Position numbers and translations under genes: made by a program
Shown: one piece after another, positions 4,289-39,695 of the stretch
How positions within the stretch are numbered: position 1 is the first letter of the stretch
How the letters are laid out: each line of letters opens with the position of its first letter
The notes under the pieces: generated by a model
Database searches by the model: none
Told to the model about the DNA's origin: nothing
The model's input: only the letters and a program-made list of their open reading frames with translations
Virus record (IMG/VR): IMGVR_UViG_3300021963_006848
Coordinates: 1 to 64,000 of that record
Origin: a virus
Strand: one strand, 5' to 3'
Length of the DNA: 64,000 nt

Positions 4289-4531
4289 TTACTTATATAG
4301 TCCGTCGTATAGTCCTTCATCATAACCATCCATCCATACTTCCTGATATACTGCATCTAAATTCTCAGGCTTTCTACCTGTCTTTCTTATCTGGGGATTA
4401 GTCTCTATTATATGAGCTATTGCATGGACTATCTCTTCGGTGCCGAAATGAGTCTTCCAGTCGCATTCATCTGCTACTTGATTTACCCACTCCATATATA
4501 ACCGATGTAGTTCTTCTTTATCTATAATCAT
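4289..4531 (-). CDS. hypothetical protein
   Basis: packed ORF. Confidence 0.65.
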   Translation of the reverse strand: MIIDKEELHRLYMEWVNQVADECDWKTHFGTEEIVHAIAHIIETNPQIRKTGRKPENLDAVYQEVWMDGYDEGLYDGLYK

Positions 4532-4532
4532 A

Positions 4533-4715
4533 TTAAGGTTTTTGTCTATCGGCTCTTTCGATATCTCTCTTGAGCTTGTTAACGGTTCTTTGTTTACTTT
4601 TTATTGCTACAGACTTAGCCCACTTACCCATATTATTTACAGGTACTCTCTCTTCCCATTCTTCGAGCTCATGTTGAGCTTTCTTCAATCGTTGCTTTAG
4701 TTTGTTACTTGCCAT
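4533..4715 (-). CDS. hypothetical basic coiled-coil protein
   Basis: packed ORF, TAATG coupling. Confidence 0.6.
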   Translation of the reverse strand: MASNKLKQRLKKAQHELEEWEERVPVNNMGKWAKSVAIKSKQRTVNKLKRDIERADRQKP

Positions 4716-5356
4716 TATATTAAAACTTCTTTTGATTCTATTCCTAATTTATCTAATACTATGCTTAAAGCTAATCCTTCTGCTCCTCCTAATGCAAATG
4801 GCGTCTTAATGTATGTATCGTTATTCATTAAAGACATATAAGTAAAGACTGGAGCTATTGTTTCTAGCTCATACCTTATTGCTTGATAGTCTATATCATC
4901 TCTAAAGAACATCACATACTCCCATATCGTCTTCCAATCCTTATACTCTATGCCCTTATACTCGCAATAATCTTTTAGATACTTAAAGCATGGATTAACA
5001 TTCTTGTAATGTCCGAAGTCACCTTCCGGCCAGCTACCTTGATAGGTTATCTGATGGTGTTGAGACTTCTCCAGAAAGCTTTTTATTCTATGCTCATCGT
5101 AATACTTGTCGGCATCTAAATGCAGGACACTACAGTCATACTCCTCAATTAAATTTAAACAAAAGAGGAGCTTATCAAGATAAGTAAAGATCTGTCTAGG
5201 GTATACATAAACATCTACTGGGTCAAATAATTCTGGACGGCTAGTTAGTATTTTTACTGTATACCCTTGTTCTTGTAGAAACCTGTAAGTACTTATAGAG
5301 TTACTTACATGATAACTATTAACTCCTACTAAAGATATAATAACATTGTCTTTCAT
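4715..5356 (-). CDS. GT-A-like (DxD) protein
   Basis: K...VLHLDAD motif. Confidence 0.5.
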   Translation of the reverse strand: MKDNVIISLVGVNSYHVSNSISTYRFLQEQGYTVKILTSRPELFDPVDVYVYPRQIFTYLDKLLFCLNLIEEYDCSVLHLDADKYYDEHRIKSFLEKSQHHQITYQGSWPEGDFGHYKNVNPCFKYLKDYCEYKGIEYKDWKTIWEYVMFFRDDIDYQAIRYELETIAPVFTYMSLMNNDTYIKTPFALGGAEGLALSIVLDKLGIESKEVLI

Positions 5357-12354: not shown

Positions 12355-12588
12355 TTAAGCTGGCCATTTTCCTTTTGGACAGTTGTTTTGTGCTGGAGTT
12401 GCAGAAGTAAAGACCTTTCCTTTAAGAGGGCAGCCGCATGCATTACATACTTCTAATCCTAAAGCGTTTTCACCTTTAAATTCACAATTTGAACATATTC
12501 CGTATCTAATCTCTGCTAATCTTTTTCTAATAGGGGAAGGATTTATAGCTGTGGACCAAGCTTCTACTATTTCAAAGATTTTGTTCAT
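12355..12588 (-). CDS. Cys-rich small protein (CxxC..CxxCxC..CP..KW), paralog of 24117-24404
   Basis: direct alignment by eye. Confidence 0.7.
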   Translation of the reverse strand: MNKIFEIVEAWSTAINPSPIRKRLAEIRYGICSNCEFKGENALGLEVCNACGCPLKGKVFTSATPAQNNCPKGKWPA

Positions 12589-16825: not shown

Positions 16826-17398
16826 CTAAATTAGAGTCTTTTTTACCCCTAAATTATCTTTCCTGTACTTGTTATTCTTATCTAATAAAAAACGGTAATT
16901 TTTGCCTGTAATTCCAACATACTTATCTATTGTGTCTAAATCTTCTCCAGTTATATAAACTTTTTCATAAGTTGTTTTAAAATCATCAATACCTTCTATC
17001 TCTTTATATCCATCTTGAAACGATTCTAAATGCTTTTGTATATCTCCTTCCGGAACTTGTTTATCAGTATACATATAAGGTTCGTGCCAATGTTCTTGTG
17101 AATTTTCAAGAGCAGCATATGCAAAACTTTGTGCCTGCTCTAATGTATTTTCTCTCCAGAGTATAATAACTTTATCAAACTTATCTTTCAATTCTTTATA
17201 CCAATAACCTCCTTGTCCCCATATTGATTTTACAACTACATTATCTCTTTCAAAAATATCGTAGTCAGTTAAAGTTGACTGCCAGAATCGGGAATCGTGG
17301 AAAGGCTCTATTGCTACTAAGTAGTTTAAACTTTCTGCCAAGTAATAAGCTAGGTTTGTTGAACCTGTTCTAGGAAGAGCATAAATTAGTATTCGCAT
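16826..17398 (-). CDS. sulfotransferase-like protein (P-loop fold)
   Basis: ALPRTGST PAPS-binding loop, IEPF, LWREN..Q..S; ends KKTLI. Confidence 0.75.
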   Translation of the reverse strand: MRILIYALPRTGSTNLAYYLAESLNYLVAIEPFHDSRFWQSTLTDYDIFERDNVVVKSIWGQGGYWYKELKDKFDKVIILWRENTLEQAQSFAYAALENSQEHWHEPYMYTDKQVPEGDIQKHLESFQDGYKEIEGIDDFKTTYEKVYITGEDLDTIDKYVGITGKNYRFLLDKNNKYRKDNLGVKKTLI

Positions 17399-17772
17399 AT
17401 TGACTTTCCGTAGTTTTTATAATCTCTATTTACAAAGTTAGATTTAAAATACTCTCCTTTGGGCCGTTCTAACTTATATTCTACTACATGGTAACTTACC
17501 GTAATTTCATCTCCTCTATCAATAGGTCTATTGGCATATAAGTTATACCCATTCTCAGTTTTAACTAGCGTAGTATTAGGACGTTCACTATGGTTACAAA
17601 ATCTACCTAACGGATCACTTTCCCATAAAGTTGCTGTGAGCTTTCTTCCTAGTTTACTAGCTCTAGATTCAACATACTCACCTATAAATTCTTCTTCTTC
17701 AAAATAAGCATTTGAAAAAACTCCAACTCCTTTTATTGGTAATACTATAAGAGTAAAATTAGCTTCTATCAT
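17386..17772 (-). CDS. SET-domain methyltransferase
   Basis: GVGVF, FIGEY, RFCNHS..PN, I..GDEITVSY. Confidence 0.85.
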   Translation of the reverse strand: MIEANFTLIVLPIKGVGVFSNAYFEEEEFIGEYVESRASKLGRKLTATLWESDPLGRFCNHSERPNTTLVKTENGYNLYANRPIDRGDEITVSYHVVEYKLERPKGEYFKSNFVNRDYKNYGKSICEY

Positions 17773-19289
17773 AGTACCTGAATATTATCTATAGAGTTAT
17801 CGTAAATGGTTTTTAAATTTATTTTTAGCTTTTCTCTAAGAGGAGCTAATTTAATATCTAAGTTAAGATCATTATTCTCTTCTATAAGTAATGTATTATT
17901 TAATACCCTTACACCAGCTCCTACTAGGTACCAACTGTACATATCAAATACGTCTGATTTACCTAATACAGATAAGTCCCCATTTTTTGGCGGCCTTATG
18001 CTCCATAACTTTAATAACGCTTTCAGTTTTTCTGGAGTCTCTGTTCTAGTTTTATATGTTCTCCAAAATTCTGTATCTTTTCTTTGAGTCATATAATGGT
18101 AATATAAGAATGCAACACATTCATCATTAAGTTCTCCTATAAGGTTATTGTAGATATCTCGAATACTTTGGTTATCTACTTTTAATGAACTAGGATCTAA
18201 GTTAAGGAGTTGCATTATTACAAGCATTACAGAAGTAGCTTCTAGAGGTTCTGTAAAACCAGCTGATAAGCCGATTGCAATACAATTCTTATGCCATACG
18301 TTTTTAAATCTTCCAGCATTAAATTTAAAGACTTTTGTACTTTCAATTGGGTGCCCTAAAAACTCTTCTACTTCTGCTCTAGCCTCTTGTTCGTTTATAA
18401 ACTTATCATCAAAAATATATCCACACCCCCATCTACCTTTCACAGGAATTTGCCACATCCAGCCATACTTCATAGCTATAGCTCTAGTCTCAGGTCTTAT
18501 AATTTTTTCAGTTTGAGGTAAGAAGAATGGAATAGCAGAATTTACTGTTAGTTGTTTATCGTAAGATACCCACTTTGAATTGTATGCATTACCTATTAAA
18601 AGTCTTTGAAATCCGCTACAATCAAAAATAAAATCACATTCGAAAAATCTTCCATCTTGTATAGATATACCTGTAATCATTTCGGATTCATTCATAAATA
18701 CTTTATCAAATTCTCCATCAACACATATAACACCTCTAGCTTCAGCAACTGAGCGTAAGTACTTAGCAACTTTTCTGGCATTAAAATGAAAAGAATATCC
18801 GACTGAGTTGTTAACTTTGTTACCTTCCTTATAAAAAGGACTTTTCTTTTCTTTAATCAACTTACTTGCAGGTATTACTTCATCTAAATCTTCTTTATTT
18901 GCTAAAGCATTTAGTATAAAGAAAGCACTATTAGTATTAGGTACTCCTGTGTTTGAATTTATATTAAGGTTATTAAGTTGTTTAAAATCTATTGACGAAC
19001 CGGGAGGTGCAGCAAATGGATGTAAGTAGTTTGTTCCATCTCCATTCCAATTTTCAAAATTTATTCCTAGTTTAAAAGTAGCGTCACATTCTTTTTTAAA
19101 CTCACCTAAGTTTATATTTAAACTTTGTAAAAATGCTGGTAATAAAGGTACTGATCCTTCTCCGGCACCTAAGATTCCTACCTTACTGCTTTCTATCAAA
19201 ACTACTCTGGTCTTTTCATAAAGCTGTTTTACTTGTAAAGCTGTTAACCACCCTGCTGTTCCTCCTCCTAATATAACTATATTTCTCAT
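17769..19289 (-). CDS. flavin-dependent tryptophan halogenase family protein
   Basis: GGGTAGW, ATFKLGI (catalytic Lys position), DCSGF, WMWQIP, GFTEPLEATS. Confidence 0.9.
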   Translation of the reverse strand: MRNIVILGGGTAGWLTALQVKQLYEKTRVVLIESSKVGILGAGEGSVPLLPAFLQSLNINLGEFKKECDATFKLGINFENWNGDGTNYLHPFAAPPGSSIDFKQLNNLNINSNTGVPNTNSAFFILNALANKEDLDEVIPASKLIKEKKSPFYKEGNKVNNSVGYSFHFNARKVAKYLRSVAEARGVICVDGEFDKVFMNESEMITGISIQDGRFFECDFIFDCSGFQRLLIGNAYNSKWVSYDKQLTVNSAIPFFLPQTEKIIRPETRAIAMKYGWMWQIPVKGRWGCGYIFDDKFINEQEARAEVEEFLGHPIESTKVFKFNAGRFKNVWHKNCIAIGLSAGFTEPLEATSVMLVIMQLLNLDPSSLKVDNQSIRDIYNNLIGELNDECVAFLYYHYMTQRKDTEFWRTYKTRTETPEKLKALLKLWSIRPPKNGDLSVLGKSDVFDMYSWYLVGAGVRVLNNTLLIEENNDLNLDIKLAPLREKLKINLKTIYDNSIDNIQVL

Positions 19290-19768
19290 ATTAATGTTTT
19301 CTGTTCTTTATGAAGATAAGAATTTTCTGCTAAAAATGCAACTAAAGTATACCTTTGTCCTTCTATTACCGGAAGAACTCTATGTCTTAGAGTAGGTCCA
19401 AATATCATAGCCGTATTTTCTTCTGGTAGTATCTTTGATATTTCTTGATCTATATACTCAAATTCACCACCCGTGAAGTTTTGATTTAAAAAGCAAACTA
19501 AGTTTTCTTTATACTTAATATGATGACGGTGGTAGTTTTCTGTCATCCTTATGTTTTTATCTATTCGTTGAATTCTTAATATATCTATTTCCCCTACTAG
19601 ATTGTGTTTTCTAAATAAGCTTTCTACTTCTACATACAACTCCCCAGTAATATTACAGCCTCTGAAATTATAGATATCATCTTCTACTTTTCTATATTTA
19701 CAGATCTCAGCATATTCTAGAAGATTTCTGTGGAGATCTTTTGGTAAGAAGTTCTTGATAGTTTTCAT
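19286..19768 (-). CDS. 2OG-Fe(II) oxygenase (prolyl-hydroxylase-like)
   Basis: HRH, FLN..F.GGEF, HRV.PV..G.RY; ends KTLI. Confidence 0.8.
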   Translation of the reverse strand: MKTIKNFLPKDLHRNLLEYAEICKYRKVEDDIYNFRGCNITGELYVEVESLFRKHNLVGEIDILRIQRIDKNIRMTENYHRHHIKYKENLVCFLNQNFTGGEFEYIDQEISKILPEENTAMIFGPTLRHRVLPVIEGQRYTLVAFLAENSYLHKEQKTLI

Positions 19769-20472
19769 TAAATTAAAGTACTGCTCTTCTTATAAGGAGG
19801 TTCTATAAAATTAAAATAAAAGTCCTCTAAACTACTATCTATTGTTAAGTTACATTCTATATTCTTTGTATGGTTTGTTATAATAAAGTCAAAAGGCTTA
19901 CCTGTAATTTCCTTGACGTACTTTTCTATCTTACTATTTTCTTTTAGGTTAAAGTATAAGATACTTTCATCATTCTCATGCCACCTAGAAGGAGCTGTCA
20001 TTACAGATGAAAAAATCATGTAAGTATTCTTACTATAGGGTAAACCTGTAGGTATTAGTCTTTTGAAGAAATTACTACATTTTTCTATATCCTGTAAATT
20101 AGAACTAAATCCAATTTCGTTCTCCCAAGCGTTAATAAAGTCTAATGTAGTAGTGCTTGTTAAGATTTGAGCAGCTGTTACGTTATATTCAGCAATAAAC
20201 TTTATTACATATTTCCATGCAGATAAGAACCTATCTAAAGGATCTCTATTAATAGCTATTACAGGATAATCATATCCAAAATGTTCTCTTAGTTTTGAAA
20301 TTCGTTCATGTGCATGTCTACGAGGTTCTAAACCTCTGTCCGCCTGTCTTTGTGCTAGTACATTGTTTGTAGGGTACTTAATAGAGAACCCTGCTAGAAA
20401 ACAAGAACGTTCAAATGCTACTGTAGCTGTTCTAGGTATCTTAAGAAACAAAAACTTGTTATCTACTAACAT
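19768..20472 (-). CDS. sulfotransferase family 2-like protein
   Basis: FLKIPRTA and RDPLDRFLSAW PAPS motifs; ends STLI. Confidence 0.8.
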   Translation of the reverse strand: MLVDNKFLFLKIPRTATVAFERSCFLAGFSIKYPTNNVLAQRQADRGLEPRRHAHERISKLREHFGYDYPVIAINRDPLDRFLSAWKYVIKFIAEYNVTAAQILTSTTTLDFINAWENEIGFSSNLQDIEKCSNFFKRLIPTGLPYSKNTYMIFSSVMTAPSRWHENDESILYFNLKENSKIEKYVKEITGKPFDFIITNHTKNIECNLTIDSSLEDFYFNFIEPPYKKSSTLI

Positions 20473-20489
20473 ATAACCTTTTTATAAAA

Positions 20490-20519
20490 TTAAGATAAGT
20501 GCTTGTCTCTGATCAAACT
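20490..20519 (-). promoter_or_regulatory. class I-type promoter for the sulfotransferase-2OG-halogenase-SET-sulfotransferase operon
   Basis: TTTG followed by TATCTTAA at class I-like spacing. Confidence 0.55.
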
Positions 20520-20604
20520 TATTATAGACTCTATTGCATTTTTCACTTTTACATCTGTTGCGGGTGCTGTGGGTACTACCACAATATCTACTATATTTGC
20601 CATC

Positions 20605-22488
20605 TTATTGTAATTTTTTTGCCATGTTATGAACTAGTATTCCTTCTGCTATATAATTCTGAGTATCTTCAACTGAGATATTATATACTAATCCTTTATA
20701 ATCCTCAAATTCTATCGTCTCGATTAGAACCCAGTTCCCCATAAGGTTAATAAAGTACTTATCGGTTTCTAATTTTTCGACTACTAACTCTTTGTGAAAA
20801 TCTTTATCAGCTTCTGGATCTACTGCTGCCCATTTGATATTACCTTCGAAATCTTTAATAGCAAATGGATGTCCTACTGTAGCTTTAGTTCTTATTCCGT
20901 TTATAACTACAAGCTTATCATTGTAGTCTGATTTCCATATACCTTTTACCTTCTTTGTAACTATATCATTAGTATTAAAGTCAAAAGATTGTACTATATC
21001 TCCAACTTCTATATCTTTGATTTCTTTTTCACCATCTGCTGTAAATACTACAGCGTCGCCTACAAAGCATTGTGCTTGACAAGTCCAGCAAGAATTATAA
21101 CAACTCCACCAGCCGCAATTATATCCACTACACCAGCATGGGTTATGTTGTACTAATGCTATATTGGTTGATTCATCTAGAATAGATAAGAAAATATCTT
21201 GTTCTTCTACATCGAGTTCATAAATTAATTTGGTATCGTAAACCGCATCAAGAGCTACTATTTCTTTCTTTAAAAGCTCATTAGTAGCAACATCTAATAG
21301 AATTACCTTATCTCCTAATTCTACTTGACTAAGAGACTTAAACCTAGTTACTGTACTTCCACTAACTTCTGTATAAAAAGTAGATCTAGTAGAATCATCC
21401 CAAGTAGTTCCATCTTCTAAAGTAATATTCAAATAAACTGTTTCTAAACTAGAGCTGATAAATCCTACAACGTTAGCGGAGTTAACCTGTAATGAGCTCT
21501 CCATTTCTGCAAAAGAAGAAGAAAAAGCTAGGACATCAACAGAACCAGTAGGTAGGTTACTAAATTGAACTGATTTTACTACTGTTCCTTCTTCTACATC
21601 TTGGATAGATATATACTCTCCTGTAGGTGTTACAATTTTTGTATCTTCATCTACGTGGTATACGTTCTTCTGATTATCTGTAGAGAGTTTAGAAATCCAT
21701 TTAATTCTAGATTTATTAGTAAGTGCAGTTGTTCCTGCTTGTAATTCATCGGGCCAAATATCTAAACTATAAGGTGATGTTTGGTGATAAGAACCAAGGT
21801 GTAGTGTATCTAAAGTAGAACCATAAACTAAATCTAAACTTCTAATAATAGAATAACGTCCTTGTATAACATTATTTTCTGAATTGATAAACTCTTGTAT
21901 AAAATATGGTGCTGTAGTATTAGCCACTAACGTGTCATATTCAGTTTGATTTGTTATAGTATGTACTTGAGGGTATACTTTTGCATCATACTGAGGCTGT
22001 ACTGATTTAACTACAACGTTGGGTGCTTTAGTAGCATCAAATCCTGCCGGAATAGCGTACGATTGGCTTTGTATAAGTTCTTGTAAGTTTCCTTTATCTG
22101 CACAATACACATCATCTATTAAAGCTGTACTATCGAATGCCTGTCTAAGAATAAACTTCGTGGGAGAATCTTCTACATAAGGTACTGTGGTAGCATAAGT
22201 ACTTACTTGATAAGGAGTGTATGCAATACCTAAGCTCTCACAAATACTCTGTAGCTTTGTACCTAAAGAAAGATTAGCTCTAAACTTAGGATCTGTTACT
22301 AACTGTTGATCATTAAAGATATAAACTAACTCTGCTATAGAATTTGATTGAAGTAATGCTTCAAGCCCAGAAAAATCTAAATGCGGGATCATACTTTGGT
22401 AGATTCCGGCACTTGTATTTAATTCAACAAGCCTTGCGTTTCCATCATCATCAAGCAAGAAGTCACTTCCTATTAAAACAGCTTTCAT
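20605..22488 (-). CDS. polyprotein: circularly permuted ATP-grasp-like domain (aa 1-277), Hint-1 (278-449), Cys/Trp-rich core (450-473), Hint-2 (474-621), MAKKLQ
   Basis: DFLLD...LVELN, VVVK, IQEFI; Hint-1 HVDEDTKIVTPTG...LVQHN; Hint-2 CFVGDAVVFTADG...TVGHPF...VYNISVE...ILVHN. Confidence 0.8.
   Translation of the reverse strand: MKAVLIGSDFLLDDDGNARLVELNTSAGIYQSMIPHLDFSGLEALLQSNSIAELVYIFNDQQLVTDPKFRANLSLGTKLQSICESLGIAYTPYQVSTYATTVPYVEDSPTKFILRQAFDSTALIDDVYCADKGNLQELIQSQSYAIPAGFDATKAPNVVVKSVQPQYDAKVYPQVHTITNQTEYDTLVANTTAPYFIQEFINSENNVIQGRYSIIRSLDLVYGSTLDTLHLGSYHQTSPYSLDIWPDELQAGTTALTNKSRIKWISKLSTDNQKNVYHVDEDTKIVTPTGEYISIQDVEEGTVVKSVQFSNLPTGSVDVLAFSSSFAEMESSLQVNSANVVGFISSSLETVYLNITLEDGTTWDDSTRSTFYTEVSGSTVTRFKSLSQVELGDKVILLDVATNELLKKEIVALDAVYDTKLIYELDVEEQDIFLSILDESTNIALVQHNPCWCSGYNCGWWSCYNSCWTCQAQCFVGDAVVFTADGEKEIKDIEVGDIVQSFDFNTNDIVTKKVKGIWKSDYNDKLVVINGIRTKATVGHPFAIKDFEGNIKWAAVDPEADKDFHKELVVEKLETDKYFINLMGNWVLIETIEFEDYKGLVYNISVEDTQNYIAEGILVHNMAKKLQ
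21070..21141 (-). other. putative core peptide PCWCSGYNCGWWSCYNSCWTCQAQ between the two Hint domains
   Basis: lies exactly between HN of Hint-1 and Cys1 of Hint-2. Confidence 0.65.
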
Positions 22489-22516
22489 ATTATGAGTTTA
22501 AATTAATTCGTTTATA

Positions 22517-22524
22517 TATAAATA
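22517..22524 (-). promoter_or_regulatory. class II motif TATTTATA upstream of the polyprotein
   Basis: TATTTAT also at 13424, 31433, 33865, 45599, 49646, 50248, 53386 and 62809 upstream of gene starts. Confidence 0.5.
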
Positions 22525-22538
22525 TCTAAGCGGACTGT

Positions 22539-22994
22539 TTATATAAGAGTCTTTGTACTTTTAATTCCGCTTCTTCTAAAATAGCTTATAAATAAGTACT
22601 GTGTTCCTTCTTCCACGCTTTCTAACTCTAGATCTATTCCGAAATCAAAGTAAACTGCTTTATTAGCTTCTGGTACAATTATGCTTTCTTTATATCTTAA
22701 TCCACCCCCAGAATAGTTTTCGTTAATAAAATAGATAATAAGTGCGTAATCTAGATCCTTAAATTGCTTATATATAGTCTTTATACCTTTACTTCTCTTA
22801 CTGAAATACATTTTATCACATTGGTAAGGAATACCAACTCCTAAGAACATGTTTTCAAAATCTATTGCAATCTGATGAGATGGGTATGTAAACCTATAAT
22901 AATTACCATCCGTATCATCTAATGCATACTTACCTTCAATATCGATAAGTCTATTTCGAAAATAATCAGGTAGTATGTTATCGAAGATTATCAT
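22539..22994 (-). CDS. degenerate 2OG-Fe(II) oxygenase-like protein
   Basis: IYFINENYSGGGL and VEEGTQY, but no metal-binding His; ends KTLI. Confidence 0.6.
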   Translation of the reverse strand: MIIFDNILPDYFRNRLIDIEGKYALDDTDGNYYRFTYPSHQIAIDFENMFLGVGIPYQCDKMYFSKRSKGIKTIYKQFKDLDYALIIYFINENYSGGGLRYKESIIVPEANKAVYFDFGIDLELESVEEGTQYLFISYFRRSGIKSTKTLI

Positions 22995-23587
22995 CTAATC
23001 TCTGTTATATTAAAGCTAATGTTTGAACAAATAGCAATTCTAGTTCCTTCTGAATTAGGAGATAAGTTAGGTTTATGTTCTACATCTCCTTTAAAAAATA
23101 TAAAATCTCCTTCGTTTGGCTTAGTTGCATATACCCTACCGTCTTTATCTCTAAGTAACAATGCACCCTCTTCTCCTTGTAAATCATAAGGTACTTGAAC
23201 ATAAAAGCAATAAGTCCAGTCTGTAAGAATAGGTGCATTAATCTTTGTATCCGGAAAGTTAATAGCAGCTGTATGCATATGAAAGCCGTTATCTGGATCT
23301 TTAGAGGTTTTATCTTGTATGTAACTCCATGTTTTACCTACCCAAATTGGTTTAGACTTCTCAGGTATATTGGATAAGCCTTTAGCAATCTTCTTACCGT
23401 ACTTAATAACATGGTCTATTTCTGGGCTATGAACTTTAATCTCTGTTGTATTAAAGTCTGTAGTACCTAATAGCCACTTATTCTGCTTTACTCTATATAT
23501 AATTTCATCTTGTCCGTAGGTCCAATCATATTGAGCTTTATAGATGGTGAGTGTATCACTTACTCTAAATTCTTTTACAGGTATCAT
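22991..23587 (-). CDS. 2OG-Fe(II) oxygenase-like protein
   Basis: HMH, FYV..P....G.L, VEH.P, RIAICSN. Confidence 0.75.
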   Translation of the reverse strand: MIPVKEFRVSDTLTIYKAQYDWTYGQDEIIYRVKQNKWLLGTTDFNTTEIKVHSPEIDHVIKYGKKIAKGLSNIPEKSKPIWVGKTWSYIQDKTSKDPDNGFHMHTAAINFPDTKINAPILTDWTYCFYVQVPYDLQGEEGALLLRDKDGRVYATKPNEGDFIFFKGDVEHKPNLSPNSEGTRIAICSNISFNITEIR

Positions 23588-24120
23588 ATAAGTGTCTTTG
23601 ATTCTTTTTGCTTAAATTCTATAAAGACTGTAAATGTAAGTCTTCCGTCTTTAATAGAAGTCCCAAACGGCTCTTGTACTGCATGGTTGATATTAGCAGG
23701 ATAGCATACAAATCTATTAAAAACATTTTCTACTTCGTCAATCTGAATATAGTTGTCATCATAGAAAGAAGTTCCGGAATTAGGTACTTGAAACGGAGCT
23801 AGATAAATTACTCCTGCGTAGTCTTTCCTACGGTCTTTATGTATACGGTTCTTACTGTACCCTTTCTCTTTTGTAGTATCTTCTAATGTATAATGGAAAT
23901 AACAATCATAAGCTGCTGTTGCAAACTTAGAATCTCTTTTACTTAATTCAGATTTTACAAGATTGGTTACTTTTAATGTAAGTTCGTTTTGCTTTAAACA
24001 TCTAAAACCCTTCCATCCTTGTTCTTCAAACGGAGGAGTATATTCTAACTCTAAAGCTTGATCTCTGATATCCCAGACGTCTTTTAAAAAATCATCTATC
24101 TGAATTAAACCTTGTATCAT
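23584..24120 (-). CDS. 2OG-Fe(II) oxygenase-like protein (DUF6445-like)
   Basis: IDDF, IHKD, AGVIYL, GTSFY, FNR...H, GRLT; ends KTLI. Confidence 0.75.
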   Translation of the reverse strand: MIQGLIQIDDFLKDVWDIRDQALELEYTPPFEEQGWKGFRCLKQNELTLKVTNLVKSELSKRDSKFATAAYDCYFHYTLEDTTKEKGYSKNRIHKDRRKDYAGVIYLAPFQVPNSGTSFYDDNYIQIDEVENVFNRFVCYPANINHAVQEPFGTSIKDGRLTFTVFIEFKQKESKTLI

Positions 24121-24404
24121 ATTAATGTTTTATCTTGTTTAATTACTGAGCTTTCACTGAGGTATTTATCTTCAACTGGTAGCCATTTATGAAGAGGACA
24201 GCCATCATAGAGACGGCTGAATACCTTTCCTTCAAGTAAGCAAGAACATTCACCACAGTACTCTGACCATTTACGGTTATTAAATAGAGTCTCTCTCTTA
24301 GAACATTGTTCACATATTTCATAACGTTCTTGAGCTAGTTTCTTTTGACTCTCTTTTGGATTTATTTTAGTAATCCAGGCAGAGATAATCTCTTTCATAT
24401 CCAT
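24117..24404 (-). CDS. Cys-rich small metal-binding protein
   Basis: CEQC...CGECSC...CPLHKW; ends KTLI. Confidence 0.7.
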   Translation of the reverse strand: MDMKEIISAWITKINPKESQKKLAQERYEICEQCSKRETLFNNRKWSEYCGECSCLLEGKVFSRLYDGCPLHKWLPVEDKYLSESSVIKQDKTLI

Positions 24405-24405
24405 A

Positions 24406-24741
24406 CTACATACTTAAGTTTCTTATTATAATAGTCAAAGATATACAAATCCATATAGTGTTGAATAGGATTAAGGTAGGTAAACTCTTTCTCATACTAG
24501 CCCATATCAAAGCTGATGATGTAGTTAATGTTAAGAAATGTAACTGCCATACTTCTATTCCAAATATCAAACCTGGTATAATAATAGCTGCTTTAGACAT
24601 CCAAGCTGCTGCTTCTATTATATTATAATCAGTCCAGTAGTCCTTAGATAAATACATTTTGTACCTATCAAGAATCTTATTAAAACCTATAGTTGAATAT
24701 AAAACTGTAAGGAATATAAAAAATGTCAGTACATATATCAT
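24406..24741 (-). CDS. membrane protein
   Basis: about four hydrophobic segments. Confidence 0.7.
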   Translation of the reverse strand: MIYVLTFFIFLTVLYSTIGFNKILDRYKMYLSKDYWTDYNIIEAAAWMSKAAIIIPGLIFGIEVWQLHFLTLTTSSALIWASMRKSLPTLILFNTIWICISLTIIIRNLSM

Positions 24742-24743
24742 AT

Positions 24744-24956
24744 CTAACTCTTCTTTAGTCCGTATTTAATCCACTTATACCAGACTCTTTCATGTATATA
24801 GTATTGGATAGGTTTCCAAAGTAATTCAGCTATTCCAAATGCTGCTCCAAACTTAACTGAACCTGTAACAGCCCACATTGTAGCAAATCCAATTGCTGTA
24901 CTAACTACTCTGTATGAGATAGTTTTAGCTATATGTCGTTTCTTTTCTACTATCAT
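24744..24956 (-). CDS. DUF2061-like membrane protein
   Basis: R...KTISYR...YY.HERVW. Confidence 0.75.
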   Translation of the reverse strand: MIVEKKRHIAKTISYRVVSTAIGFATMWAVTGSVKFGAAFGIAELLWKPIQYYIHERVWYKWIKYGLKKS

Positions 24957-25354
24957 AACTTACCCTCCTCTTTCATCTTATTTCGTATGCCTGTAGCTGA
25001 GATGTCTCTAATCTCTTCTGGTGGCATATGCTCAATAACATCGTAACCAACTCCTCTTCCTATATTGATTGATTCAATATCTGGAATGATAATAATTTTT
25101 AACTTACCTTCTTCAATCAAATCTAATAATTCATTAGTTAGGTTACTCAATACCTCTTGAGGTGTCCATGGATTCTTTTCGTCAGGTTCTACATCTCTGA
25201 TAGCTAGTAGAACTCTTTTACCTTCTTTTAATCTTTGGTCTATCAACCAGCGATGCCCTGCATGCCAAGGTTGCCATCTGCCAATAAACATAGAGTACTT
25301 AACATCGTTAGATGAAGACTGAAATGCGGCAGTTGCTAAATATTTACTACTCAT
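24953..25354 (-). CDS. HxGH nucleotidyltransferase (candidate minimal sulfate adenylyltransferase)
   Basis: GRWQPWHAGH and ISATGIR; adjacent to cysC. Confidence 0.75.
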   Translation of the reverse strand: MSSKYLATAAFQSSSNDVKYSMFIGRWQPWHAGHRWLIDQRLKEGKRVLLAIRDVEPDEKNPWTPQEVLSNLTNELLDLIEEGKLKIIIIPDIESINIGRGVGYDVIEHMPPEEIRDISATGIRNKMKEEGKL

Positions 25355-25376
25355 ATCTTAATGTATGAATTTTAAT

Positions 25377-25814
25377 TTAAAGCTCCAACTTATCTACTAA
25401 CTCTCTATAAGTATGGAAAGGATCCTTATTTGTAGTATCGACATCTAAGTAATTTTCCAAAGGCGGTTCGTAATTTTCTACATGAAAATGATTACGTCCT
25501 CTATCTTCAGATGTATGTACATAAATTTCAATTAAATCTTTTCCTAACCTAGCTTTAAAAGCTTCTCGTTGATCTCTATAAGGAGAAACTAAAGATACAA
25601 ATACGCAGTATCCTTTCTCATTTAAAAAGTAAGCTATATTCTGAGCTAGTTCTATATTCTTTCTTCTTCCAGCTTCTGAATAATCTTTGTTTTCAAAAAT
25701 TTCTCTAATATCATCTCCATCAACTGTTATAGCAGAATGATGTACGTGAATTTTCAATGAGGTAGCTAAGGTAGTCTTACCTGCTCCAGGTTGTCCTGTA
25801 AACCAGTATATCAT
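25377..25814 (-). CDS. cysC: adenylylsulfate (APS) kinase
   Basis: WFTGQPGAGKTT, DGDDIR, SLVSPY, YEPP. Confidence 0.9.
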   Translation of the reverse strand: MIYWFTGQPGAGKTTLATSLKIHVHHSAITVDGDDIREIFENKDYSEAGRRKNIELAQNIAYFLNEKGYCVFVSLVSPYRDQREAFKARLGKDLIEIYVHTSEDRGRNHFHVENYEPPLENYLDVDTTNKDPFHTYRELVDKLEL

Positions 25815-38333: not shown

Positions 38334-39009
38334 TATATAAAACCTCTCCTACTTTAAATTGCCAGTCGTAGTCGATATCGAATGCTTCTAATTCTGGCAT
38401 TGTGAATAATTTAATTCCTCCTGGTGCTTGAAAGTCTCCCATAAATCTATCTTGAGCGATAAGATCTAATCTAGAAGCATATAATACGTGAGCTGCTTCA
38501 TAGGTAGGTTCTACTGCTTTAGTATTCATTATAGTCTGATCTTCAGGCCATGGTGTAACTAAAGCACCTTCTTTATTCCAATAGTATTGCTTTTTTTCTA
38601 TAACTGCAAAAAGGTTTTCTTCTTCTTGAACTATAAACTGTCTTACAAAGGAATCAATAGTATCTGTTGTTAGTAGAGGATTACATCCGGAAATTAGAAC
38701 TACATACTTATACCAAGGTGGTAATTTATCATGCCATTCATAAATCTTCTGTAAACTATTATCGTTGTTTGCTGATTCGTGGCTTCTCCCAAATACGTAA
38801 ACTCCTTTTTGTGCTGCTATATTAGATAGCTCTTCTTCGTGTACTGAAGCAACAATGTTATTACGTGGAATTACATCGGAATCCAATAACTTATCTAATA
38901 CTAATTCAAATAGATTTGTATCTGCGAAAGGCTTGATCATCTTTCGAGGTACTCTTTGACTATTAAGTCTTGCCTGTACTACGAATGCAATTTCTGCTAT
39001 ATCTTTCAT
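38302..39009 (-). CDS. neuA: acylneuraminate cytidylyltransferase (CMP-nonulosonate synthetase)
   Basis: QARLNSQRVPRKM, NPLL, FDIDYDWQF. Confidence 0.85.
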   Translation of the reverse strand: MKDIAEIAFVVQARLNSQRVPRKMIKPFADTNLFELVLDKLLDSDVIPRNNIVASVHEEELSNIAAQKGVYVFGRSHESANNDNSLQKIYEWHDKLPPWYKYVVLISGCNPLLTTDTIDSFVRQFIVQEEENLFAVIEKKQYYWNKEGALVTPWPEDQTIMNTKAVEPTYEAAHVLYASRLDLIAQDRFMGDFQAPGGIKLFTMPELEAFDIDYDWQFKVGEVLYNEFSNTKRIS

Positions 39010-39695
39010 ATTAGTTTTTTTGTTTCTTCTGTTAATGGAAAAAATTCTCTACTGATAGGTGTTCCTATATTGTAATCAAATCCTTCTCCTAGATTTTGTA
39101 AAGTTTCATGTCCTCTAACTCCTTTCAATACTGTATAAGCATCTGTAAAAATACTTAAATAAGACATTGGATGTCCTTCGTAATCTCTCCTAGTATCTGT
39201 AGGCTTTAATCCTTTATGTTTAGTGAAGGCATGTATGTTACTAAAATCTTTATTAAATCCATCAAACCCAGCAAAGTAAATTATATGAGCTTCTGTAGAT
39301 AAAGCAAGCTGTATTAACCTAAAAGCGGCTCCAGATTTGTAAGCTGGGCGGTTATTATCTTTGAAAAACTGTAACTCTGTTTCGTGAATAGGTATATTGA
39401 TAGTTTCTTTAAACTTACGAAACTCTGAAGTGTTTTGCTTGCCGCGGTAATGAGAAGTTTCGAAAACTACTGTTGTATTACTATTAGTAAGTTTCTTAAT
39501 TAACCTTTCTTCTTTAAGGGGAGTTGTGTACGCAAGTACGTAGAAATCAATCTCTTGATTCAAAACTCTAGGCTCTAAATAGAAATCGTTACATGTCCAT
39601 AAATAATCGTAAGGAAGATTCTCCCACTTAGTATCTAAAGTAGATTGCCCTCCTCCTAGTATTAATATTTTTTTATCTTTATACTTTGCTAGCAT
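39006..39695 (-). CDS. sialyltransferase/Maf-like protein
   Basis: ILILGGGQS, CNDFY, SG..LIQLA, IYFAGFDG. Confidence 0.6.
   Translation of the reverse strand: MLAKYKDKKILILGGGQSTLDTKWENLPYDYLWTCNDFYLEPRVLNQEIDFYVLAYTTPLKEERLIKKLTNSNTTVVFETSHYRGKQNTSEFRKFKETINIPIHETELQFFKDNNRPAYKSGAAFRLIQLALSTEAHIIYFAGFDGFNKDFSNIHAFTKHKGLKPTDTRRDYEGHPMSYLSIFTDAYTVLKGVRGHETLQNLGEGFDYNIGTPISREFFPLTEETKKLI

Follow-up and report, generated by a model that had tools for sequence, protein, structure and literature searches.

A four-residue C-terminal tag is shared by unrelated enzymes of a viral gene cluster and may serve to dock them on a common partner protein. The cluster lies at approximately 16.8-25.8 kb on the minus strand of the window, the 64,000-nucleotide stretch analysed here, which is positions 1-64,000 of the IMG/VR virus record IMGVR_UViG_3300021963_006848 (linear, 97,038 bp, 35% G+C, estimated completeness 54%). 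Six of its genes encode proteins ending in TLI, as an earlier note on this DNA had remarked. The tag is not peculiar to these six genes: it is the hallmark of an essentially virus-only module, fetched here in more than 300 loci, is restricted to that module, and travels across a whole superfamily with the 627-residue protein designated the anchor. Its consensus is K-(S/T/K/N)-(L/I)-(I/L)-COOH, at the end of a flexible lysine-rich tail. We regard it as about an even chance (probability roughly 0.5) that this is a docking tag bringing peptide-tailoring enzymes to the anchor.

Inspection of the open reading frames (ORFs) between 10 and 30 kb recovers all six tagged genes on the minus strand, with the coordinates and endings first described (Table 1). 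The six proteins were said to differ in fold, and this holds: the Pfam and PHROG libraries place them in different families, and all-against-all BLAST separates them likewise. A crude gene call (longest ATG ORF, greedy, non-overlapping) yields 155 genes in the 97,038-bp record. Six of these end in TLI, all inside 7.6 kb and all among 10 adjacent genes (Fisher 1e-8), where composition alone leads one to expect 0.06; with P(≥6) at 4e-11, chance is excluded. In control loci, TLI ends 0 of 1,715 genes, and the tag is kept in related phages.

Related viral loci were retrieved via the anchor, with a context of ±10 kb on metagenomic IMG/VR viral contigs. A gene is scored as tagged if its product ends in [LIVM][LI] in the crude gene calls—a loose pattern, such patterns also catching some conserved non-tag ends (YEVV, DHVL, IDFI, NIQVL)—and families were built by single-linkage BLAST. 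Across 82 anchor loci, 715 of 1,612 genes (44%) are tagged. The share reaches 69%-97% at offsets -5 to -1 and +1 to +4 from the anchor (85%-97% except at +4) and drops below 10% beyond about 10 genes from it.

Families are all-or-none in this clustering, and 15 unrelated families are at least 85% tagged, which excludes common descent as the source of the tag. They include several 2-oxoglutarate (2OG) oxygenase families, two sulfotransferase types, the tryptophan halogenase, a small cysteine-rich protein, a radical S-adenosylmethionine (SAM) family, two methyltransferase families, DUF6071, and DUF6734. Among the families of the window's own tagged proteins, all 69 members of the P-loop family (16826-17398) and all 85 of the Sulfotransfer_2 family carry the tag, as do 159 of 160 in the family of the 19286-19768 oxygenase, whose alignment keeps the iron-binding H..H and an arginine. 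By contrast, the anchor (0/79), CTP_transf_like (0/38), DUF2061 (0/38), and adenosine 5′-phosphosulfate (APS) kinase (1/28) are untagged. The suggestion that the tag marks enzymes belonging with a 'precursor' protein, here the anchor, stands: neighbours are tagged, and sulfate-activation genes almost never are.

Weighted by family, the consensus is lysine-rich at positions -8 to -5 and continues with K/N, S/K/T, L in preference to I, and I in preference to L; only the last four residues are conserved. Position -4 is K in 50% and N in 24%, whereas position -3, over the 15 tagged families, is S in 32%, K in 26%, T in 19%, and N in 7%. The small cysteine-rich protein (24117-24404) illustrates how the tag is appended. 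Its residues 85-95 have a predicted local distance difference test (pLDDT) score below 50 in the AlphaFold 2 (AF2) model, and the tail is accordingly predicted to be disordered and flexible. The paralog outside the cluster (12355-12588), already reported to lack the tag, indeed terminates at the point corresponding to the end of the globular part of 24117-24404 and, in the alignment, is without both the tag and the linker of about 20 residues, itself variable in sequence and length. Equivalent untagged paralogs ending CPKGKWPA are found in three other loci (L003, L052, and L071); family-wide, the tag is present on 74 of 80 members, those without it being out-of-cluster paralogs. In most relatives the small cysteine-rich gene lies directly upstream of the anchor.

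Controls independent of the anchor were obtained by fetching 80 loci with a halogenase profile, their halogenases being 35%-44% identical to that of the window. None of the 80 has an anchor, and no tag is present on any halogenase scored, nearly every locus contributing one. Only 57 of the 1,715 genes in these loci (3.3%) end in [LIVM][LI], against the 715 of 1,612 in anchor loci (Fisher 3e-195). In the halogenase family associated with the anchor, 54 of 56 members match the loose end pattern and 53 are truly tagged, the window's NIQVL matching by pattern only. In a halogenase tree, the sequences of the window and of two relatives (L002 and L003) form the untagged sister group of the tagged clade, which implies either a loss of the tag in this lineage or its gain once the two had diverged; the halogenase of the window lineage is approximately 90 residues longer than tagged ones, with a longer C-terminus. 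Two untagged control halogenases from anchor-less loci nest inside the tagged clade, on a long branch. Besides the halogenase, the SET protein (4 of 7 family members tagged in other phages) and the 2OG oxygenase at 22991-23587 (65 of 68 tagged; the L003 ortholog ends PSLI) are untagged in the window lineage and tagged in relatives elsewhere, and the tag can therefore be gained and lost enzyme by enzyme.

A profile of the first 275 residues of the anchor, searched against 1.84 billion representatives (clusters at 50% identity), finds 327 clusters, and the domain is N-terminal in all of them. Many members are about 495 residues long and end in a Cys/Trp-rich stretch; the cysteine-rich tails are hypervariable, with a second Hint domain or a Peptidase_S74-like domain after some of them. 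In three distant anchor subfamilies, 345 of 435, 294 of 448, and 26 of 51 genes at +1 to +6 downstream are tagged, compared with 57 of 489, 110 of 696, and 22 of 101 distant genes, respectively, and the tag consensus is identical in all four subfamilies. Anchors of P0063 type (L077:10001-11695) carry the Peptidase_S74-like domain—an intramolecular, self-cleaving chaperone—after the cysteine-rich peptide in place of the second Hint. The peptide can thus have a free end, Hint 2, or S74 behind it, and neighbouring genes are tagged in all three arrangements. No co-variation between tag variant and anchor was detected: the share of terminal L versus I per locus runs smoothly from 0 to 0.58, in small samples. 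Mimicry of the tag by the C-terminus of the anchor peptide itself, often ...PKL or ...EKV, does not hold as a general rule: subfamily A6 ends PVC, LPL, or DCP and A7 mostly ...HNK.

The anchor is essentially confined to viruses. Among 185,579 species with cellular genomes there is a single match, on a 5-kb contig of a metagenome-assembled genome (JABJFP010000318.1, labelled Methanobacteriota). This contig, locus L339, encodes a 2OG oxygenase, a halogenase, and a small cysteine-rich protein ending KSIL, followed by an anchor, and is probably viral DNA binned into that genome. A tblastn search with the 493-residue form of the anchor gave no match, and with the window anchor only the Hint 2 part was matched, to Vibrio phage inteins. 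Megablast of the cluster against the INPHARED phages gave no match. Longer proteins with the ATP-grasp domain fused to further parts were looked for and not found, a weak negative.

Selection on the tag acts on the protein and not on the DNA, as had been argued from synonymous codon variation and from the absence of start-stop overlap in two of the six genes. Both observations are correct: the tag codons vary at synonymous sites only across all six genes, and non-coding gaps of 144 nt and 50 nt follow the genes at 16826 and 22539, respectively. At 19286, 23584, and 24117 the next start overlaps the stop as ATGA, and at 19768 as TAATG. The wider sample agrees. In 677 tagged genes from 15 families, the codons at -2, -3, and -4 track gene-body usage for Leu, Thr, and Lys, and serine at -3 is drawn from both codon boxes (AGY 40%, TCN 60%). 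Ortholog swaps are conservative, KTLI being replaced by KSII, KTVI, KSIL, or KTFI. The tags read KTLI, KTLI, KSII, NTLI, ETLI, and KSLI in L002 (77% identity), KTVI, KSIL, PSLI, VTLI, KSLI, and KTLI in L003 (58% identity), and KTFI and KTII in L004 (40% identity). For individual genes, the ortholog of 22539-22994 ends KSII in L002, and those of the DUF6445 protein (23584-24120) end KTLI in L002 and KSIL in L003.

It is conceivable on paper that the tag has no peptide function and is a nucleotide-level signal—translational coupling or a start context such as TTAATATGA—or the product of common descent or chance. A coupling signal would be in keeping with the overlap of 379 of the 677 tagged genes with the next start and with the enrichment of ATA as the codon of the final isoleucine. 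In addition, AAAACCTTAATATGA, which would read K-T-L-I-stop, occurs once out of frame at 4527-4541 (minus strand), at the junction of 4533-4715 and 4289-4531, where it precedes the start of the latter; this is the only out-of-frame copy in the record. The ATA enrichment, the only codon bias seen, is however explained by 221 ATGA overlaps; in 298 of the 677 genes the end does not run into a downstream start, and starts in this genome generally have another word as their context. Together with the use of both serine boxes, leucine and threonine codons that follow the gene body, conservative amino-acid swaps, and a chance probability of about 4e-11, this leaves the nucleotide-level, descent, and chance explanations effectively refuted, and we give them next to no credence.

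What might read the tag is suggested by the architecture of the anchor, the AF2 model of which (mean pLDDT 84.5) has four parts (Table 1). The first Hint, aligned by VIA-align over residues 272-470, resembles the TvoVMA (Z 15.2) and KlbA (Z 14.9) inteins, and the second matches the bacterial intein-like domain BIL2 (6tmm; Foldseek 7e-10, VIA Z 20). In a VIA-align search with the whole 627-residue model, the N-terminal domain matches ATP-grasp ligases with moderate Z scores: YgiC (7uka) at 9.4, with 194 residues aligned at a root-mean-square deviation of 4.0, and GspS (2io7) at 8.8, followed by 5oeu (8.3) and 3k1t (8.2), and by glutathione synthetases, TTLL11, RimK, and ArgX. Enzymes of this kind hold a short peptide or protein tail by its carboxylate, which they activate. 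The title of Pederick et al. 2023, as cited in PMC12270671, calls YgiC a peptide-spermidine ligase. Residues D9, E22, and N24 do not vary in any of four subfamily alignments, nor do several positions occupied by Arg, Lys, or Asp, and this D...E-x-N arrangement would be equivalent to the catalytic, Mg/ATP-binding residues of GspS. Fold and motif together point to a putative ATP-grasp-like ligase; residues 1-270 match no Pfam family at E ≤ 0.1, and a profile of the domain finds no ATP-grasp chain among PDB sequences at E ≤ 10, with chance-level matches only.

If the tag is a docking tag, the free C-terminal tail would insert at a conserved position on the anchor, probably the groove for peptide carboxylates in its ATP-grasp-like domain. 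Unrelated tailoring enzymes—2OG oxygenases and sulfotransferases and, in relatives, the halogenase, radical SAM enzymes, and methyltransferases—would then act one after another on the Cys/Trp-rich peptide (residues 450-472), their presumed substrate, which Hint 1 would meanwhile keep tethered beside the ATP-grasp-like domain; Hint cleavage would subsequently release the product. The tag is kept across subfamilies while the peptide is hypervariable, and hence the reader must be something conserved, a description that fits the invariant residues of the ATP-grasp domain. The strongest indirect argument is that the tag is confined to enzymes expected to touch the peptide, whereas the genes supplying 3′-phosphoadenosine 5′-phosphosulfate (PAPS) are untagged. 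Structure prediction lends some further support: the solved folds nearest to the anchor N-terminal domain (YgiC, GspS, and glutathione synthetases) belong to ligases by which short peptides are gripped at their C-terminal carboxylate, and the tail that bears the tag is predicted to be flexible.

Several points weigh against docking on the anchor. All anchor loci were found via the anchor, which is circular, and only the halogenase controls break the circularity. The ATP-grasp assignment combines a moderate Z score (9.4) and the D...ExN motif with no sequence match in Pfam or the PDB. Invariant residues that look catalytic suggest an active ligase over a passive dock, and so favour a covalent role for the tag. 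The window's halogenase, SET protein, and one 2OG oxygenase are untagged and yet remain in the cluster; the tag is therefore not indispensable for every enzyme. Lastly, the gene for the reader could be located beyond the ±10 kb of context covered, in the 46% of this genome that is missing, or in the host.

A covalent role would have the ATP-grasp domain form an acyl-phosphate on the α-carboxylate of the tag and ligate it to an amine, which could be a lysine, some small amine, or the N-terminus of the peptide once Hint has freed it; the tagged proteins would then carry a C-terminal modification or be joined to the peptide. Activation of C-terminal or side-chain carboxylates of peptides or proteins is indeed what all the closest folds do (YgiC, GspS, glutathione synthetase, RimK, TTLL, and ArgX/LysX), the catalytic-type residues D9, E22, N24, R115, K132, K161, and R216 are invariant across subfamilies, the tag always occupies the extreme C-terminus, and Hint 1, ending HN, would free an α-amine on the peptide. 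Joining one copy of the peptide to each enzyme, however, makes multi-step tailoring by a dozen enzymes hard to picture; moreover, the lysine at -4 is not invariant (K 50%, N 24%), and no nucleophile has been identified. We therefore hold this role to be unlikely. Quite unlikely, too, is that the anchor is specifically a protein C-terminus ligase with the tag as its substrate signal, ...L-I-COOH being joined to the Hint-exposed amine on the Cys/Trp peptide. Were it so, the phage would graft a small cysteine-rich module post-translationally onto defined proteins of its own, in a conjugation system unrelated to ubiquitin or Pup and set by a four-residue tag.

The tag could also be an address read by a phage or host protein other than the anchor, such as a membrane site, a scaffold, or the shell of a compartment. 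With the record at only 54% completeness there is room for such a reader, and short C-terminal address signals exist elsewhere (the peroxisomal targeting signal PTS1 and encapsulin cargo peptides). Against this, no untagged protein other than the anchor is present in essentially every tagged neighbourhood, and tagging declines away from the anchor; the record contains no recognisable PDZ domain, and the cofactor needs of the enzymes argue for the cytoplasm; on balance, another reader seems improbable, albeit still worth reckoning with. A PDZ domain had been proposed as one candidate, on the grounds that the tag fits the class I ligand pattern. All six window tags do fit, with T at P-2 and I at P0, and a free carboxylate would likewise be required for recognition, but across families S or T stands at P-2 in only about half of cases, K or N being found otherwise. 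The profiles PF13180, PF00595, and PF17820 find no match at E ≤ 1 in the 97-kb record, while the controls gave matches in 14 of 14 genomes; this is a weak negative, the record being 54% complete and the host not searched. The PDZ reading is weak.

Degradation offers a further explanation, in which the tag is a degron or unfoldase signal, of the ClpX C-motif 2 type, read by the adaptor of a host AAA+ protease and timing or limiting the life of the enzymes. The C-terminus of the phage Mu transposase MuA, ...RRKKAI, is such a C-motif 2 and shares with the tag a basic patch, a short hydrophobic end, and an exposed tail; lysine is the commonest residue at -8 to -4 of the phage tag, ahead of L-I-COOH, although the resemblance is one of pattern only, and a flexible, exposed tail would suit an unfoldase. 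Unlike C-motif 2, the phage tag is confined to one module and is missing from its anchor and cofactor-supply genes (APS kinase, 1/28), which fits a need to meet the peptide better than a need to be degraded, and no link to a protease was seen. Homologous enzymes in anchor-less phages are untagged although those hosts have Clp proteases too, and the same tag persists in phages of great diversity, whose hosts are presumably diverse as well. A degron is accordingly considered improbable, though a live rival. The ssrA type (...LAA) was rejected, given that the tag ends in L/I and then I/L and never in AA.

Among known signals, PTS1 is the nearest analogue in form. This eukaryotic peroxisomal signal, of the S-K-L-COOH type, is read by the tetratricopeptide repeat (TPR) domain of PEX5, and it shares with the phage tag a length of three to four residues, a free C-terminus as its only position, a flexible tail, occurrence on many unrelated enzymes, and a basic residue combined with a terminal aliphatic one. 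PTS1, however, follows (S/A/C)-(K/R/H)-(L/M), whereas the phage tag is basic at -4 instead of -2 and has two aliphatic residues at its end. PTS1 also sends proteins to an organelle, while the carriers here are phage enzymes of one operon, in a tailed-phage-type record with overlapping genes on one strand. No TPR or PEX5-like reader is known for the phage tag.

Short elements that bring several enzymes to one substrate-bearing partner are also familiar from the leader peptides and recognition elements (RREs) of ribosomally synthesised peptides that are modified after translation (RiPPs) and from the docking domains of polyketide synthases and nonribosomal peptide synthetases. Unlike the RiPP leader/RRE pair, the polarity is reversed here, with the common element on the enzymes and not on the precursor. 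A docking domain of the second kind (a folded, helical element of approximately 15-30 residues) was rejected for the tag, which has four residues, a tail predicted to be disordered, and a variable linker. Short address signals at the C-terminus are familiar from organelles, protein shells, and proteases; we know of none that serves as the common handle of the tailoring enzymes of a biosynthetic operon.

The closest published gene arrays are those of cyanophages, in which distantly related 2OG dioxygenases occur with tryptophan halogenases, and which the available text of Iyer et al. 2010 (PMC2938197) reads as peptide modification. The present operons similarly mix many 2OG dioxygenases with tryptophan halogenases, but the published cyanophage and pelagiphage dioxygenase/halogenase arrays (Syn9 gp40-61 and HTVC008M) have neither the anchor protein nor the tag, and no C-terminal motif is mentioned in that available text. 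A literature search found no description of a shared C-terminal tag, or of a phage module combining ATP-grasp, Hint, and a cysteine-rich peptide.

Should the tag dock enzymes on the anchor, the logic of RiPP biosynthesis would be reversed, with the recognition element on the enzymes rather than the precursor, and four added residues would explain how oxygenases, halogenases, sulfotransferases, radical SAM enzymes, and methyltransferases can be swapped within one pathway. The tag provides a simple sequence rule for finding clients of a virus-only system in metagenomes, and the tag peptide could be used as bait to identify the reader and function of a widespread, uncharacterised phage module. 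As a minimal portable tag, it might also recruit arbitrary enzymes to a scaffold.

Table 1. Features of the tagged cluster and of the untagged paralog outside it, by window coordinates; the stop codon is given after the tag codons.
Feature	Coordinates	Strand	C-terminal end	Tag codons	Basis or remark
Untagged paralog of 24117-24404, outside cluster	12355-12588	-	CPKGKWPA		
P-loop protein, 190 aa	16826-17398	-	VKKTLI	16829-16840: AAG ACT CTA ATT TAG	N-terminal PRTGST motif
SET-domain protein, untagged	17386-17772	-	ICEY		Pfam SET 6e-12
Tryptophan halogenase, 506 aa, untagged in this lineage	17769-19289	-	NIQVL		Pfam Trp_halogenase 6e-107
2OG-Fe(II) oxygenase, 160 aa	19286-19768	-	EQKTLI	19289-19300: AAA ACA TTA ATA TGA	phrog_61
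Sulfotransferase, 234 aa	19768-20472	-	KSSTLI	19771-19782: AGT ACT TTA ATT TAA	Sulfotransfer_2 (Pfam)
Anchor, 627 aa, untagged	20605-22488	-			ATP-grasp-like + Hint + Cys/Trp-rich peptide + Hint
Anchor residues 473-622, second Hint (BIL-type), then tail	20605-21072	-	MAKKLQ		Pfam Intein_splicing 1e-12
Anchor residues 450-472, Cys/Trp-rich peptide PCWCSGYNCGWWSCYNSCWTCQAQ	21073-21141	-			pLDDT ~32, predicted disordered
Anchor residues 272-449, first Hint	21142-21675	-	HN		VIA-align; H448 and N449 invariant
Anchor residues 1-270, putative ATP-grasp-like ligase domain, alpha/beta	21679-22488	-			AF2 pLDDT mostly >85; fold search
2OG-oxygenase-like protein, 151 aa	22539-22994	-	STKTLI	22542-22553: AAG ACT CTT ATA TAA	Weak 2OG-FeII_Oxy_3 match
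2OG oxygenase, 198 aa, untagged here	22991-23587	-	TEIR		phrog_81
DUF6445 (2OG-like) protein, 178 aa	23584-24120	-	ESKTLI	23587-23598: AAG ACA CTT ATA TGA	Pfam
Small Cys-rich protein, 95 aa	24117-24404	-	QDKTLI	24120-24131: AAA ACA TTA ATA TGA	phrog_13558
Untagged genes of the same operon: 111-aa membrane-like protein, DUF2061, CTP_transf_like, APS kinase (sulfate activation/PAPS supply)	24406-25814	-			Pfam

Two of the tagged proteins call for comment. The P-loop protein at 16826-17398 gives no match in the Pfam and PHROG libraries and is, on its sequence, probably a sulfotransferase. For the small cysteine-rich protein, no solved fold is found above Z 5.2; a LysW-like carrier role was considered and rejected, nothing LysW-like being among the matches listed.

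Three further genes, all on the minus strand, have ends that resemble the tag. The product of 39006-39695 (229 residues, no assigned family), encoded 15 kb from the cluster, ends TKKLI, and its homologs in the L003 and L002 records (91% and 37% identical) end TKNLI and IKQLL, respectively. The genes around it resemble what we take to be sugar or nonulosonic-acid synthesis genes. This protein is possibly one more tagged client, or else its end is coincidental; by chance, about five such ends are expected among approximately 145 genes. The 213-residue product of 4715-5356 ends KEVLI, and its L003-record homolog ends QEILI; its BLAST family occurs in other anchor loci, ending LKFI or ENII in 4 of 6, and it may represent a client encoded 12 kb from the cluster. 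The 170-residue product of 1333-1845 ends QQLSLI, presumably closer to a sliding-clamp-binding motif of the QLxLF type than to the tag.

A separate regularity concerns gene starts. The word ATAAAGGTT stands immediately 5′ of the ATG at about 20 of them (for example, 8402, 9232, 10518, 11318, 11660, 12085, and 29334), mostly before small genes in the left half of the window, and probably acts as a promoter or translation-start element common to one class of genes.

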